Part shown: one piece after another, positions 2,541-31,984 of the stretch
Numbering within the stretch: position 1 is the first letter of the stretch
Layout: every line of letters begins with the position of its first letter
Source of the DNA: a virus
Lineage: Duplodnaviria; Caudoviricetes
IMG/VR virus record: IMGVR_UViG_3300047160_014082
Location: 1 to 64,000 of that record
Length of the DNA: 64,000 bases
Direction: 5' to 3' (one strand)
Translations under genes and position numbers: made by a program
Notes under the pieces: model-generated
The model's database searches: none
Told to the model about the DNA's origin: nothing
Seen by the model: the letters and a program-made list of their open reading frames with translations, nothing else

Positions 2541-3116
2541 ATGAAACTGGTTCTGGCAGTGCTGGTCTCCCTGGTTTTGGCGAGTTCGACGTGCCTGGCC
2601 GGCGGTCCCTACGGCTGCGGTTATTACTACACGCCCAGCTATTGCTACAACTCGTGCTACACGCCGAGCTACTGCTATAGCTACTACTGTGCGGGGGTGT
2701 ATGGGGGCCGGTGGTATCCGGCCGGGAACTATGCCCTCATCGGCGGCTGCTGGTACCGCCAGGGCTACGGCTATGAGTACGGCATCCCGATCCAACAGTA
2801 TGTAGTGCAATCGGCTCTGGTGGCCCCCTATGGCGTGCTTCAGCCGGCGGGTATCACCGTGCAAGCCAACGCGCTGCCGTTGCAGACCGTACAGGCGACT
2901 CAGGTAGCCGCGGTGCAGCAACAGTACGCGGTGCAACAGCCGCAGATGCAGCAGCAAGTAGGCTATAGCCAGCAGCCAATGCAGCAATCGGCTGTACCCA
3001 CGGCCGACGAAATGAAGAAATTCAAGTTGATGTTCCGTGAAGCCATGGCCGAGCTTCAGCAAGAGTTTGCCAAGCAGCAATCCCAGGCTCAGGCCCCGAT
3101 GGCTCCTCCGAAGTGA
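2541..3116 (+). CDS. Exported Tyr/Cys- then Gln-rich low-complexity protein
   Basis: AGGAG RBS, signal peptide, YTPSYCY repeated twice, Gln-rich tail. Confidence 0.7.
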   Translation: MKLVLAVLVSLVLASSTCLAGGPYGCGYYYTPSYCYNSCYTPSYCYSYYCAGVYGGRWYPAGNYALIGGCWYRQGYGYEYGIPIQQYVVQSALVAPYGVLQPAGITVQANALPLQTVQATQVAAVQQQYAVQQPQMQQQVGYSQQPMQQSAVPTADEMKKFKLMFREAMAELQQEFAKQQSQAQAPMAPPK

Positions 3117-3125
3117 GGTGATGTC

Positions 3126-3866
3126 GTGCGTTTGGCCCTCGTGCTCTTGCTACTGGCTACATCGGGGGTGATGGGAGGGGATGGTTATTACCCCTCCCGT
3201 TATCCCTTTGTGGAAATCTTCTATGTTCCCCAACCCACACTTTTGGTAAACTTGAGTCCGCCAATGGTGTATCCCAACTCGGGGATCGTACAACAGCCAT
3301 TGGCGCAGACATACGCAACTCCCGTAGCAGTGTACCCTAGCCAGACGATGACGACGACGGTGGCCACGACGGCCCCCGTGCAGCAGCAGCAGGTGGTGCA
3401 ACAGGCCCCGGCCGCAGCTATGCCGGACTTCTGTGCCGAGCTGTTGAAAAGGCAAATAGAAGTAGAGAAAGTAATGTTTGAAAGTCTGCGGATCATGAGG
3501 AACTTGCCGCCGCCGGAACCGGAAGGTGCCGTAACCCCATCGGCCGGTCTGGTGGCGGCAGTTTCTGCTCCCGTGCCGGCGTCTGCACCGTCCCCGTTGA
3601 CGGTGCAGCGCCGGCCCCCCTTTGATCCGAGCTATGCGGTGAGCCTACTGCACCGCTACTGTGCCGAGTGTCATACGGGGCCGCGCTCCCGGGGGCCACG
3701 CGGCGAACGAGTGCAGTTGTTTGCTCAAGATGGCCGGCTGAACCTCATCAACACTACCAAGCGGGCCATCATGGAATCCATCGCCACAGATTACATGCCG
3801 GCCCGCGAACCCAAGGTCCCGTGGAATTTGAAACAACACATACAGCAGTGGGCCGAACATCACTAA
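3126..3866 (+). CDS. Exported protein with a C-terminal cytochrome-c-like domain
   Basis: Signal peptide; YCAECHTG followed by MPAREP (candidate distal Met ligand). Confidence 0.7.
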   Translation: MRLALVLLLLATSGVMGGDGYYPSRYPFVEIFYVPQPTLLVNLSPPMVYPNSGIVQQPLAQTYATPVAVYPSQTMTTTVATTAPVQQQQVVQQAPAAAMPDFCAELLKRQIEVEKVMFESLRIMRNLPPPEPEGAVTPSAGLVAAVSAPVPASAPSPLTVQRRPPFDPSYAVSLLHRYCAECHTGPRSRGPRGERVQLFAQDGRLNLINTTKRAIMESIATDYMPAREPKVPWNLKQHIQQWAEHH

Positions 3867-3885
3867 TAAGAAAGGGAGGTGAATT

Positions 3886-4584
3886 ATGCGATGCTTTGCT
3901 CTAGCTCTGGCAGCAATTCTGGTTTGGACGGGTTTGGCGCCGGCTCAGCGCGTCGTCGTGCGAGCGCCGTTCACGAACGTCAACATCGGTGCTCGGGGCT
4001 TCGGCTTTGGTGGTGTGAGCCGGGGCACGTTCTTCCGCCCGGGCTTCGGGACTTTCAACACCTTCGGCACCTTCAATAGGGGCGTGTTCTTCAACCGGGC
4101 GCCGTTCTTCAGCACGTTCGGTTATGGCGGCTTCAACCGCGGGTTGTTCTTCAACCAAGGCTATGGCTACAACATCAATCAGGCGGCATTCTTCCCGAGC
4201 TACTTCCCGAGTTACGCCCAGACGTACATGCCGCCGGTGCAGCTTCTGCTTCAGGCTGCCCCGGTCCTGACCTACCGGGTTCCGGTGCAGACGACGTATC
4301 AGATTCAGCAACAGCTGGCGCCGGTCCAGACGTATCAGCAAGAGCTGGCCTATCCCCCGGCGGAAACGGTCAGCTACGCTCCGAGCTACGCCCCCAGCTA
4401 TGCTCAGAGCTACGGCTACACTCCGAGCTACGCCCAGAGCTACTCTCAGAGCTACGGTTATGCTCCGTTGCCGGTCAATCCGCAGGGTGTAAGTCCTGTG
4501 GTGACGTCCGGCTACTGTGGCACCTTGGCGAATCTGTACGGCGGTCGGGGCCTGTTCTTCCGGCCGTTCCGCTTCTTCAGGTAA
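3886..4584 (+). CDS. Exported Gly/Phe/Tyr-rich low-complexity protein
   Basis: GGAGGT RBS, signal peptide, FNRGxFFN and SYAPSY/SYAQSY repeats. Confidence 0.7.
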   Translation: MRCFALALAAILVWTGLAPAQRVVVRAPFTNVNIGARGFGFGGVSRGTFFRPGFGTFNTFGTFNRGVFFNRAPFFSTFGYGGFNRGLFFNQGYGYNINQAAFFPSYFPSYAQTYMPPVQLLLQAAPVLTYRVPVQTTYQIQQQLAPVQTYQQELAYPPAETVSYAPSYAPSYAQSYGYTPSYAQSYSQSYGYAPLPVNPQGVSPVVTSGYCGTLANLYGGRGLFFRPFRFFR

Positions 4585-28846: not shown

Positions 28847-31800
28847 GTGTCCAAGAAGAAAGTGCTCCTGGTTCAGGTCAATCATCGGTACGGCAAGCAG
28901 ATTTTCTTGCCGTACTCGGTTGGTCTCCTACGCGCCTACGCCGAAAGCATCCCAGAAATCCGGGAGGCCTATGAATTCCTGCCTTTCATCTACGAGCGCG
29001 AAGACATCGATGAGTTATTCCGCAATAGCAGTATCAACCACGACCCGGACGTTATTGGACTTAGCTGCTACATCTGGAACTGGGAATGGACGCGCACCTT
29101 TGGGAGAATGGCTCGTAAGTTCTGGCCTGATGTTCTGATTGTTCTGGGGGGACCGCACATCCCGGCCAACGATCCGGACTTTTTCCAGCGCGAGCCCTGG
29201 GCCGATACCATCGTGCATTACGAAGGCGAAGAGACGTTCGCCAAGATCTTGATGGCTCATGACGCGAATCCTTTTTCCCGGGGGAGGATTCCGGGCACCA
29301 GTGACAACGCCGGACCGGGCTGGGGACTTATCAAAAATCCCCCAGCGGAGCGCATCACCGACCTGGACAAGTTGCCATCACCCTATCTGACGGGGATGTT
29401 TGATGATTTGCTCAGGGAGCCGTACCAGTGGCAGGCCCTGAGTGAAACCCATAGGGGATGTCCATTTTCTTGCGCCTTTTGCGATTGGGGAAGTGCAGTA
29501 TTCCAGAAGGTGAGAAAGTTTTCTGATGAGAGGATCACGGCCGAGTTGGATTGGTGCGGGCATAATAGGATCGAATTGTTGTACAACTGTGATGCCAACT
29601 TCGCCATGTTTGAACGTGATGTGGCCTACGTCCGGCGCATGGCCGAATGCAAACGCACCTATGGGTTCCCAAGCAAGTTCCGTGCTGCCTACGCCAAGAA
29701 CTCCGGTGAGCGCGTCTTCGAGGTGAGCCGGATCCTGAACGACGCCGGCCTGAGCAAGGGAACGACCCTGAGCTTTCAGAGCATGAACGAAGAGACCCTA
29801 GGCCTCATCAAGCGCAGTAACATCAAGATGAACAACTTCAAAGATCTAGTGGCGAAATATCGTATCCATAATATTCCCACGTATACAGAGCTGATCATCG
29901 GTCTGCCGGGGGAGACCTACGATAGCTTTGCTAATGGCATTGAACAGCTCCTGGATGCGGGCTGTCATGACGGCCTGTCGGTGTATACGTGCCTAGCCGA
30001 AGGGTCTTCGATCTATACGATAAACGGAAGCAAGGCGATTGAAGACATAGATCCTGGTGAACAGATCCTTGGCTGGGATGAGTTTCTAGGAAAAAGGGTT
30101 ATCTGCACAGCTTCTAGGTCGGTGTACAACGGGCGCAGGAGAACATGGAAGCTGACGCACGACCAGGGAAGTGTTATAGCTACCCACGACCATAGGATCT
30201 TCACCACTAATGGGTGGAGAAAGCTCTGTGAACTCAAAGAGGGTGATCAAGTTCTGTGCAAACTGCGGGGGGACGGCTTGGAGAAGCCGGGCCAAGAGGT
30301 ATTGCTCCAGGAAGTGTTGGCTAGAATCGGGGGAGTTCAAGGCCACGAGCCGACAGGTCCAGCTGGAAGGGAAGCATGGGAGGAACAAGGCCAAGAGAAT
30401 AGCGGCGGTCTTGGCTATCCTCCGGAAGAAAAAATGTCTGTCTTGTGGGGGGCCGCTCGACAAGATGAAGACGGCTCGCAAGCTGAACATCAAGAAGGCG
30501 CTGAAGGCCAAATGCTGTTCCCAACAATGCCAAGGGAGAAATCCCGAGAGGATCAAAAAAGTCAAGCGGGCGCACAAGAATGGTCGATACGATTACTCCC
30601 CCCTTCTAAATCATGTGAACTCGAATCAAAATTGGGTCAAGAACCGAACGCCGGAACAGGAGAGACAAAGAGCAAAGAAACATCGCAAGTCGATGGAGAA
30701 ATACTATACCGATCCGAAGTGGGTAGTAGCCCACATGAAAAAATCGGGTCGTGCCCCGAACAAATTCGAGAGGAAAATAATTCGATTTCTCAAGAAGAGG
30801 GGGCTGCCGTTCGACTTTACGGGGGACTTCAGCTTTTGGGTTCGCCCGAAAGGTGTGACCTCAAGCAAGAACCCGGATTTTGTTCACGAGAACAGGAAGC
30901 TTCGGTTGGCAATACTGGCCCACGGAACCTACTGGCACCGGGACAGCAGGAAGGTCCAGGAGGAGTTGGATTTTTACCGCGGGGCCGGTTGGAAAGTGTT
31001 CATCATCTGGGAGGACGATCGTTTTTGCGACCGGCTGGAAGATCGGATTCGGATGTTTGCTGGTCTACTGTAAGGGCTATCGAGTTTGTTGGGACAATTC
31101 GGGTCTACGATCTTTTGGGCGTAACCCCTACCCAAAACTTTTTTGCTGACGGGGTACTCGTTCACAATTGCGAGCTACTTCCTAACTCTGAAATGTCCCA
31201 GCCCGAGTATCGGGAAAAGCATGGCATCAAGAGCGTCAACACCCCCCAGTTGTTCTATCATGCGAGCCCGGCGCCGGATCCGCACACGGAGAAGTACGAA
31301 CTTGTCATCGGCACCAATACGCTCGACCCGGGGGATTGGCTCGACTGCCAGATGTTCGCCTGGGCCGTGCAAGCCTTCCATTGCATGTACCTGACCCGGG
31401 CTGTAGCCATGATGCTACGGCACAACAAAAATATGGGCTATCGCCAGTTTTACGAAGCCTTGCTGGACTGGGCCAACCTGAACACGGATACAATCCTGGG
31501 CAAGGCGTACAAAACGGCCCTGAACTTTTACGAGCGCATGCGCGAAGGCAAAACCCCAACGTTGGTAGACAAGCGCTTCGGGGATGTCTCCTGGCCCCCG
31601 GAGGAATTCGCCTTTTTGCAGTGTGTCAACTCCATGTTCTTCTGGCCCGAGCTGGTAACTTTCATTGAAACTCTGGGCTGGCGCCCGGATGAGCGCCTGA
31701 TAGACGAGCTGGTCTATTTCCAGGAAGCGACCACCAAGAGCCCGCGGCCGGCGGCGCGTGCGCTGGAGTTCATTTTTGACATCCCGAACTATCTGAGCGA

Positions 31801-31984
31801 TCCGACGGCCAATGTCGGCCCTAATCCTTGGGTCAAAGTGGCGCCTCTGGCCAAGCATTTTGGCTACGCCGTCGAATGTAACGAACCACGTAACCTGGAA
31901 CAGTTTGCCCGCGAGGTCGTCTGGTATGGACGCAAGGGTGGCACCTTTGCTCGTAAGGTCACCAAGTTGGAGAATGTCCAATGA
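28847..31984 (+). CDS. Cobalamin-binding radical SAM enzyme, interrupted by an intein
   Basis: N-terminal B12-binding domain (GLSCYIWN, LGGPH, EGEE); RGCPFSCAFC (CxxxCxxC); extein junction LSVYT|CELLPNSE. Confidence 0.9.
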   Translation: MSKKKVLLVQVNHRYGKQIFLPYSVGLLRAYAESIPEIREAYEFLPFIYEREDIDELFRNSSINHDPDVIGLSCYIWNWEWTRTFGRMARKFWPDVLIVLGGPHIPANDPDFFQREPWADTIVHYEGEETFAKILMAHDANPFSRGRIPGTSDNAGPGWGLIKNPPAERITDLDKLPSPYLTGMFDDLLREPYQWQALSETHRGCPFSCAFCDWGSAVFQKVRKFSDERITAELDWCGHNRIELLYNCDANFAMFERDVAYVRRMAECKRTYGFPSKFRAAYAKNSGERVFEVSRILNDAGLSKGTTLSFQSMNEETLGLIKRSNIKMNNFKDLVAKYRIHNIPTYTELIIGLPGETYDSFANGIEQLLDAGCHDGLSVYTCLAEGSSIYTINGSKAIEDIDPGEQILGWDEFLGKRVICTASRSVYNGRRRTWKLTHDQGSVIATHDHRIFTTNGWRKLCELKEGDQVLCKLRGDGLEKPGQEVLLQEVLARIGGVQGHEPTGPAGREAWEEQGQENSGGLGYPPEEKMSVLWGAARQDEDGSQAEHQEGAEGQMLFPTMPREKSREDQKSQAGAQEWSIRLLPPSKSCELESKLGQEPNAGTGETKSKETSQVDGEILYRSEVGSSPHEKIGSCPEQIREENNSISQEEGAAVRLYGGLQLLGSPERCDLKQEPGFCSREQEASVGNTGPRNLLAPGQQEGPGGVGFLPRGRLESVHHLGGRSFLRPAGRSDSDVCWSTVRAIEFVGTIRVYDLLGVTPTQNFFADGVLVHNCELLPNSEMSQPEYREKHGIKSVNTPQLFYHASPAPDPHTEKYELVIGTNTLDPGDWLDCQMFAWAVQAFHCMYLTRAVAMMLRHNKNMGYRQFYEALLDWANLNTDTILGKAYKTALNFYERMREGKTPTLVDKRFGDVSWPPEEFAFLQCVNSMFFWPELVTFIETLGWRPDERLIDELVYFQEATTKSPRPAARALEFIFDIPNYLSDPTANVGPNPWVKVAPLAKHFGYAVECNEPRNLEQFAREVVWYGRKGGTFARKVTKLENVQ
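29990..31168 (+). mobile_element. Intein (393 aa)
   Basis: Block A CLAEGSSI, block B THDHRIFT..GW, block F VYDL, block G FADGVLVHN followed by Cys+1. Confidence 0.92.
30210..31073 (+). CDS. Zn-finger plus Vsr/DUF559-like endonuclease nested in the +1 frame inside the intein
   Basis: CxxC..YCSRKC, CxxC..CCSQQC; PNKFE...NPDFV...LAHGTYWH...GWKVFIIWE; AGGA 5' of the ATG. Confidence 0.8.
   Translation: MGGESSVNSKRVIKFCANCGGTAWRSRAKRYCSRKCWLESGEFKATSRQVQLEGKHGRNKAKRIAAVLAILRKKKCLSCGGPLDKMKTARKLNIKKALKAKCCSQQCQGRNPERIKKVKRAHKNGRYDYSPLLNHVNSNQNWVKNRTPEQERQRAKKHRKSMEKYYTDPKWVVAHMKKSGRAPNKFERKIIRFLKKRGLPFDFTGDFSFWVRPKGVTSSKNPDFVHENRKLRLAILAHGTYWHRDSRKVQEELDFYRGAGWKVFIIWEDDRFCDRLEDRIRMFAGLL

Follow-up and report, generated by a model that had tools for sequence, protein, structure and literature searches.

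A candidate Vsr-like homing endonuclease gene nested in the +1 frame of a contiguous intein in a phage B12-binding radical-SAM gene

Introduction

The window, as the whole stretch of 64,000 nucleotides (nt) analysed here is called, represents positions 1 to 64,000 of an 83-kb metagenomic virus record in IMG/VR (IMGVR_UViG_3300047160_014082), a contig obtained by metagenome assembly. It contains a gene for a B12-binding radical-SAM enzyme that is interrupted by an intein, and the middle of this intein is covered by a second long open reading frame (ORF) in the +1 frame of the same strand; the intein and the nested nuclease ORF are together referred to as the window element. The locus raises the question whether the nested ORF is the homing endonuclease gene of the intein, translated separately from the host protein, or whether the arrangement has another cause. 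The favoured explanation, which is considered quite likely, is that a class-1 intein, mobile and inserted in a B12-radical-SAM gene of a phage, has its homing endonuclease encoded by a separate, nested gene in the +1 frame. Stop-free dual coding, with the nuclease as a gene of its own, had already been proposed in a preliminary description of this DNA, and the proposal was borne out by the homologues of the nuclease, its Vsr fold, the conservation of the nuclease frame and the codon choice in twelve elements.

Results

The host frame: a contiguous intein with a long linker

The host gene (28847-31984, + strand) encodes the precursor (1045 amino acids, aa) of a B12-binding radical-SAM enzyme of the KedN5-like methyltransferase family, as assigned with Pfam and NCBIfam. 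Its product matched the Pfam families B12-binding (E-value 4.6e-11) and Radical_SAM (2.3e-9), and the best NCBIfam match was B12_rSAM_KedN5, the model for KedN5-type C-methyltransferases, with an E-value of 1.2e-77 and a score under the cut-off of that model. By alignment with intein-bearing and intein-free homologues the N-extein was placed at 28847-29989 (last residues ...GLSVYT), and the C-extein at 31169-31984 starts with the +1 nucleophile Cys (CELLPNSEM...). The intein between them (29990-31168, + strand), matched by Pfam Intein_splicing, is of class 1 and comprises 393 codons with Cys1, a block B of the form T65-x-x-H68 and a terminal HN; at its 3′ junction (...VLVHN/C, the slash marking the splice site) the terminal Asn is followed by Cys +1. 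All 393 codons were found to be free of host-frame stops, as had been described, and a fractured-gene layout with a stop after the N-terminal intein half and an own start for the C-terminal half is not present, since the host frame is open throughout.

The intein is divided into an N-terminal splicing (HINT) domain (residues 1-94, 29990-30271), a linker (residues 95-352, 30272-31045) and a C-terminal splicing domain (residues 353-393, 31046-31168), which ends with VLVHN and is matched by NCBIfam intein_Cterm. The Pfam Intein_splicing match reached 44.8 bits (cut-off 35.8) and involved none of the residues between about 95 and about 352. An AlphaFold2 model was built on eight aligned inteins, among which C1, T65, H68 and N393 are invariant together with W358, V372 and N383 of the C-terminal splicing domain. 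The pLDDT score (predicted local distance difference test) of this model was about 90 for residues 1-93, which are all beta, and for residues 353-393 (85-96), and for residues 95-352, which lack secondary structure in the model, it was about 32. Foldseek comparison of the confident part retrieved the mini-inteins Ssp DnaB, Mtu RecA, gp41-1 and NrdJ-1 with E-values of about 1e-6. The 258 residues of the linker consist to 46% of Glu, Gln, Gly and Ser, have a predicted isoelectric point (pI) of 4.9 and gave no match in the Pfam, NCBIfam and PHROG libraries; the linker thus agrees with the earlier description of an E/Q/G/S-rich middle lacking nuclease motifs, and it appears to be filler without a fold of its own. 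Judged by sequence and model, the window element contains a class-1 HINT intein that looks competent for splicing, the splicing itself being predicted.

The +1 frame: a basic protein with zinc-ribbon-like units and a Vsr-like nuclease domain

Across the intein the +1 frame is open solely at 30180-31073, with stop codons flanking both ends, whereas the third frame contains 21 stops, 16 of them over the nuclease span. The predicted homing endonuclease gene (30210-31073, + strand) was recovered as the 864-nt ORF that had been reported; from its ATG it encodes 287 aa followed by a stop, and GTG codons at 30228 and 30243 are alternative starts. The product is basic (25% Lys plus Arg, pI 10.4). Two zinc-ribbon-like units of the type CxxC...CxxxC were located at 30255-30317 (C16, C19, C32, C36) and 30435-30530 (C76, C79, C103, C107), and a Vsr-fold nuclease domain was assigned by VIA-align and profiles to residues 181-287 (30750-31070), with E187, D223, H238, H243 and E252 invariant, so that the two zinc-finger-like units and the Vsr-like nuclease named in the preliminary description were both found. 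In relatives, unit 1 is kept as CxxCG...CSxxC; its profile matches were YacG-like only and weak (E-value 0.3).

An exhaustive HMMER search was needed to find the family, because a word-indexed protein search with the nuclease had returned 2 matches only. It yielded 1540 homologues with an E-value of 1e-3 or less; 74 of these remained at a limit of 1e-10, and the lowest E-value was 1.2e-46. The best homologues are 45-56% identical, and almost all matches listed are 120-420 aa long, with most of them in the range of 150-400 aa and thus of the size of free-standing proteins. A search for longer proteins in which the nuclease domain is fused in frame retrieved none, which is weak evidence, and tblastn against GenBank phages gave 0 matches.

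The AlphaFold2 model of the nuclease had a mean pLDDT of 76.5, with 82-97 over residues 181-287. Plain Foldseek with this model returned nothing at E ≤ 0.001 (best about 0.02-0.1), and VIA-align of residues 181-287 retrieved I-Bth0305I (3r3p; Z 10.6, root-mean-square deviation 2.7, 91 residues), 3hrl (Z 9.8) and Vsr (1cw0 and 1vsr; Z 9.7 and 8.2). A profile of the nuclease homologues matched I-Bth0305I (3r3p) at 7e-6 and also E. coli Vsr, and the curated Vsr models were not reached (Pfam, 16 bits at a cut-off of 27; TIGR00632, 19.9 at a cut-off of 97.85). By sequence comparison the window nuclease is thus a distant relative and no orthologue of Vsr.

The motif NPDF...ILAHG.YWH of the nuclease aligns with PDF...FTHG.FWH of Vsr, and the equivalents of Vsr D51, H64 and H69 are D223, H238 and H243, all invariant in the clade. 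E187 is likewise invariant in the clade and presumably corresponds to Vsr E25, according to an alignment with the E. coli Vsr sequence. The position of Vsr Phe62 is occupied by Leu236, which is invariant in the clade ("ILAHG"), and the Glu that defines EDxHD is absent there; two more distant relatives (P0004 and P0005) do carry this Glu ("IIELFGDYWH"). The first Asp and the His of EDxHD are present (D223, H243), and the invariant E252 lies three residues from the position of Vsr D97 in a part of the alignment that is uncertain. Due to the Leu at the defining Glu position, the nuclease is placed, as judged from its residues, in the Vsr-like superfamily and outside EDxHD in the strict sense. Loss of the catalytic Glu/Asp, which a comparison with P0004 had suggested, was considered and rejected, as closer relatives and the Vsr alignment show a Vsr-type D/H/H site.

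Related elements and insertion sites

Scans of viral and metagenomic contigs with the nuclease alignment gave 17 loci. At 12 of them a long open ORF encodes B12-binding, radical-SAM and HINT domains and contains the nuclease ORF in its +1 frame (L004, which is the same as L011, L005, L006, L009, the frameshifted L010, and L012-L017). In what follows the twelve elements are the window element, L004, L005, L006, the two elements of L009, and L012-L017; the duplicate L011 and the broken L010 are omitted. A scan of viral contigs with the N-extein found nothing. The twelve elements come from independent viral or metagenomic contigs, and the offset is +1 in every one of them. Their nuclease domains are 38-61% identical to one another, and the nucleases of the eleven further elements are 28-45% identical to that of the window.

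Four insertion sites were found, all in B12-radical-SAM genes and each with a Cys at +1. The inteins precede the first (L009a, L006, L014), the second (L004, L013) or the third cysteine (L005, L012, L015, L016, L017) of the CxxxCxxC motif, or they lie at ...YT/CE[LV]LPN (window, L009b). The +1 residue is Cys in 11 intact elements, and the junction has been lost in the decayed copy L016 (ILHRS/R). Intein-free alleles are known for each site: the window has an intact CPFSCAFC, and neither L004 nor L005 has an insertion at the window's site. Pairwise identities of the nucleases and of the HINT domains showed no clear grouping by insertion site.

Several of these loci have features of their own. 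At L009:411-4691 a single B12-radical-SAM gene of 1427 codons is interrupted twice, by an intein at the first CxxxCxxC cysteine (1047-2243) and by another at the window's site (2775-3965), and each intein has one +1-frame Vsr-like nuclease ORF (1081-2148 and 2935-3867). At L012:1695-5234 a mini-intein of the same family without a nuclease (about 137 residues) is present at the first cysteine, six residues upstream of the nuclease-bearing +1 intein at the third cysteine, so that both lie inside CxxxCxxC. The nuclease closest to that of the window (57%) is encoded at L010:1-2233, where one indel near 1030-1068 shifts both the host and the nuclease frame. One host-frame stop and a degenerate or lost intein C-terminus were observed at L016:2-1208, and a deletion in the nuclease core at L015:2688-3626.

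Stop avoidance in the host frame

As a null model, 5000 synonymous codon shuffles within the nuclease ORF were made for each locus and the resulting host-frame stops were counted. The shuffles gave 10-18 expected host-frame stops for ten full-length ORFs (about 14 for the window) and 3.1 for the 85-codon fragment L017. None were seen in 9 of the 10 full-length ORFs and one in the decayed L016, and at every full-length locus, the window included, not one of the 5000 shuffles was free of stops. The avoidance can be followed to the codon boundaries, since in the +1 offset every host-frame stop is a T/AA, T/AG or T/GA that spans two nuclease codons (here the slash marks the boundary): a codon ending in T precedes a codon starting with AA, AG or GA in 1 of 892 cases, as compared to 579 of 2172 elsewhere (Fisher p = 2e-96). 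Five free-standing relatives, which served as control, have 5-39 stops in the equivalent frame and no avoidance of that kind. Every NNT codon has an NNC synonym in the genetic code. In the +1 offset any stop of the host frame therefore disappears when the T at a third position of the nuclease frame is changed to C, which leaves the nuclease protein unaltered and makes this offset cheap for it.

These numbers also bear on the possibility that two compensating indels in the assembly have displaced a nuclease domain that is in truth in frame, which had been named in advance as the case that would overturn the dual-coding proposal. The contig is a metagenome assembly and contains a run of six G at 30265-30270, where such an error might arise. 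A host frame made by error would, on the other hand, carry about 14 stops and carries none, a state reached by 0 of 5000 shuffles; eleven other elements, assembled independently and with nucleases 28-45% identical to that of the window, have a +1 layout of the same kind; and the frame transitions fall in sequence that is meaningful in both frames. Because of the expected stops and the recurrence in independent assemblies, compensating indel errors were excluded, and the probability left to them is negligible.

Constraint on the nuclease frame

In the codon-level comparison of both frames, another check proposed in the preliminary description, purifying selection was found to follow the nuclease frame and not the host frame. 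The pairwise identity over the nuclease domain is 49% in the nuclease frame versus 27% in the host frame, with the nuclease frame being higher in 36 of 36 pairs. At the nucleotide level the identity is 0.61 at the first, 0.66 at the second and 0.38 at the third codon position of the nuclease. A protein read in the +1 frame leaves this kind of signature. Apparent motifs of the host frame, "LLAPG" for instance, only mirror motifs that are conserved in the nuclease ("YWH.D" in this case). Taken with the stop avoidance, the layout is a selected dual-coding design in which both frames are under long-term selection. The comparative case for dual coding is unusually strong, with one frame selected for a protein and the other only for being open; it draws on a dozen diverged copies, a free-standing negative control and a simple explanation from the genetic code.

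Ends of the nuclease gene and possible starts

Both frames are meaningful at the two ends only, i.e. over the first 10-20 codons of the nuclease and over its last about 8 codons plus the stop. In the 5′ overlap (30210-30271, + strand) the nuclease ORF begins on sequence that also encodes the last strands of the N-terminal splicing domain. ATG 30210 is placed within intein codon 74, five codons past the block-B His68; the start had been assigned to block B, and it proved to lie in the N-terminal splicing domain, beyond block B proper. In the 3′ overlap (31046-31073, + strand) the DNA for the C-terminal helix and the stop of the nuclease also encodes the first strand of the C-terminal splicing domain, and the conserved Trp of the host frame and a conserved Gly of the nuclease use common bases. 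The stop had been assigned to block F; it is positioned in intein codon 361, a few codons inside the structured C-terminal splicing domain, which begins at about 353-356. It is exactly 95 nt before the end of the intein in 7 of the 11 elements measured, the window included.

The AGGA that had been noted upstream of ATG 30210 is present, at a poor spacing of 12 nt. GTG 30228 has a GGAG 8 nt upstream, and an AAGAGG directly abuts GTG 30243. Given the poor spacing at the ATG and the closer motifs at the GTG codons, ATG 30210, GTG 30228 and GTG 30243 are all candidate starts of the nuclease. At most loci a start codon with a Shine-Dalgarno-like motif is found upstream of the first zinc ribbon. Folding of the RNA around the nuclease start of the window indicated no unusual structure (z = -0.36) and gave no support for a regulatory hairpin like that of Dassa et al.

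The junction sequences are also the place to look for programmed +1 ribosomal frameshifting, by which the N-extein and the N-terminal HINT domain would be fused to the nuclease in a tethered product. That a nuclease joined to the N-terminal half of an intein is viable is suggested by three distant database proteins (P0041, P0099 and P0156), in which a B12 domain, the N-terminal HINT domain and the nuclease follow each other in one frame that ends at the nuclease C-terminus. Contig scans retrieved none of the corresponding loci. If these predicted proteins are real, separate translation is required for the C-terminal half of the intein, and they may represent split inteins with the nuclease fused to the N-terminal half. 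In the window, the stop at 30177-30179 shuts the +1 frame ten codons upstream of the ATG, Shine-Dalgarno-like motifs accompany possible start codons, the junction lacks a stable RNA structure as described above, and inspection by eye, no systematic motif search having been made, gave no conserved slippery motif in the junction sequences. Frameshifting is thus regarded as very improbable.

Discussion

Proposed expression and spread of the element

In the favoured reading of a mobile intein with a nested nuclease gene, ribosomes in the host frame would produce a precursor that consists of N-extein, N-terminal HINT domain, 258 residues of disordered filler, C-terminal HINT domain and C-extein, from which the intein would then excise itself by means of Cys1, T65/H68, Asn393 and Cys +1. 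A minority of the ribosomes would start internally, at ATG 30210 or at GTG 30228/30243, and read the +1 frame, which would give rise to the basic protein of 287 aa, with its Vsr-type nuclease and the two zinc-ribbon-like units that would bind DNA. The nuclease presumably cuts intein-free alleles and in this way spreads the whole element. Selection would act on the protein sequence in the nuclease frame and, across the linker, only on the absence of stops in the host frame. That the nuclease is initiated internally and translated on its own, that the intein can splice, that the nuclease cleaves and that the element is still mobile is deduced from sequence features. The expression of the nuclease would be uncoupled from splicing, and it might be speculated that nesting in a translated ORF keeps nuclease levels low and ties nuclease synthesis to the transcription of the host gene.

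Several observations weigh against this reading. The start codon in the window is ambiguous, given the poorly spaced AGGA of the ATG, and L004 and L009 have TTG or GTG starts only before the first zinc ribbon. A disordered insert as long as the linker might slow splicing. The occurrence of decaying copies (L016, L015 and L010) implies that any single copy could be inactive. Finally, the origin of the layout is puzzling, since a fresh insertion would bring with it about 14 stops in the host frame, which the elements would have had to avoid from the outset.

The decaying copies lead to the alternative that the +1 nuclease of the window is a relic which is no longer expressed or active, the intein being a vertically inherited mini-intein with a long, tolerated filler. 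The weak Shine-Dalgarno context of ATG 30210 would fit this, and there is no close relative by which recent selection on the window copy could be gauged, the nearest nuclease being 57% identical. A dead ORF would soon gain stops, however, as illustrated by the 16 stops of the third frame over the same span, whereas the ORF of the window is intact over 287 codons and retains all invariant residues, including E187, D223, H238 and H243. In addition, the constraint across the family tracks the nuclease frame. A relic is hence held to be unlikely, although less so than frameshifting.

Relation to known intein-associated nucleases

That endonucleases may be encoded out of frame in inteins is already known as a general kind. 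Endonucleases on the antisense strand of inteins were noted by Gorbalenya in 1998, according to the citation of that work in the preprints of 2025 and 2026. In actinobacteriophages, contiguous inteins with antisense LAGLIDADG, antisense Vsr-like and frame-3 endonuclease-VII-like nucleases have been described, and invasion by a free-standing endonuclease gene was proposed as their origin (bioRxiv 10.1101/2025.01.02.630785). The present elements resemble them in being contiguous, in the structureless in-frame middle and in the separate endonuclease ORF that overlaps it at the usual slot. They differ in that the Vsr-like nucleases of the actinobacteriophages are antisense and their sole sense-strand, out-of-frame case is endonuclease-VII-like, whereas a sense +1 Vsr-like nuclease is found here. 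The actinobacteriophage hosts are genes for DNA polymerase, minor capsid, terminase and thymidylate synthase, as opposed to B12-radical-SAM genes of uncultured phages, and the four insertion sites and the quantified stop-avoidance signature are further points of difference.

A cyanobacterial dnaX intein contains an out-of-frame LAGLIDADG nuclease, designated "+2ORF", which is under purifying selection (bioRxiv 10.64898/2026.09.14.751524). It shares with the present elements the overlapping frames, the disordered stretch in the host frame and the selection on the endonuclease frame, and it is distinguished from them by nuclease family, frame and cellular host as compared to a Vsr fold, the +1 frame and a phage radical-SAM host. 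The +1 offset is no universal rule, since frame 3 or a "+2" ORF is used in the cases published so far.

In fractured genes, split inteins flank a free-standing gene for a Vsr-like endonuclease, with 3′ overlaps of 6-69 bp (Dassa et al. 2009, PMC2677866). These genes and the window element have in common a Vsr-like nuclease at the endonuclease slot and on the same strand, a 3′ end of the nuclease gene that lies over the C-terminal intein in another frame, and phage-like metagenomic hosts. In the fractured genes the host frame is closed by a stop, a spacer of 27-51 nt and an own start for the C-terminal half follow, and the intein acts in trans (PMC2677866); in the window element the host frame is open and the intein contiguous. 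A single nonsense mutation in the linker would be enough to give the closed host frame of the fractured genes, and the C-terminal half would still need its own start codon.

The Glu that defines EDxHD occupies the position of Vsr Phe62 (PMC2677866, PMC3239194). With I-Bth0305I (Taylor et al. 2011, PMC3239194; 3r3p) the window nuclease shares a C-terminal Vsr-fold domain, a modular N-terminal DNA-binding region and a role in homing, which is predicted in the present case. It differs by Leu236 in place of the EDxHD Glu and by a His at the position of Vsr His64, as in Vsr itself, where I-Bth0305I has Asn. Moreover, I-Bth0305I is intron-encoded, whereas the window nuclease is nested in an intein, has N-terminal zinc ribbons and shows no NUMOD match. 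With E. coli Vsr (1cw0, 1vsr) it has the fold and the signature PDF...HG.[YF]WH (D51, H64, H69) in common. Unlike the window nuclease, Vsr is a T:G-mismatch repair nickase without a zinc-ribbon N-terminal extension, and the sequence similarity between the two is marginal.

The assessment of the locus as uncommon in architecture and nuclease family is tempered by these reports, since out-of-frame and antisense cases have been published and Vsr-like nucleases linked to inteins have been known since 2009. It is new that a nuclease combining zinc ribbons with a D/H/H active site of the Vsr type is encoded on the sense strand at a +1 offset, that the hosts are phage B12-radical-SAM enzymes, that all three iron-sulfur cysteines and one further site are occupied, and that genes with two such inteins occur. 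Each of the three iron-sulfur cysteines would serve as splice nucleophile.

Implications

The forms in the clade comprise a mini-intein without nuclease (L012), the twelve contiguous elements with an overprinted +1 nuclease and the fusions of N-terminal half and nuclease (P0041, P0099 and P0156). It is conceivable, and put forward here only tentatively as the less probable view, that the clade is a living intermediate between contiguous and split ("fractured") inteins whose architecture can be switched by single mutations. If this were true, the origin of natural split inteins would become testable within one family, and the +1 offset would be favoured, as all host-frame stops can be removed synonymously in the nuclease.

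For genome annotation, such inteins are at risk of being mistaken for decaying or mini-inteins, with the nuclease genes left uncalled. Possible uses include compact inteins that may tolerate a filler of about 210-290 residues and Vsr-type nucleases with putative modular zinc-ribbon DNA-binding regions.

Additional observations

Free-standing relatives of the nuclease are present in other viral contigs. Among one genome each of about 185,000 prokaryote species the sole match (L032:2221-3117) was a free-standing relative, located next to phage-like genes on a contig from a metagenome-assembled genome of Candidatus Omnitrophota.

In the window, the nuclease-coding stretch at 30200-30800 is marked by a strong AT skew of 0.26-0.44 (A over T) as compared to the remainder of the host gene. 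The excess of A over T fits the Lys/Arg-rich codons of the nuclease, and base composition may thus offer a simple way to flag overlapping genes that are hidden.

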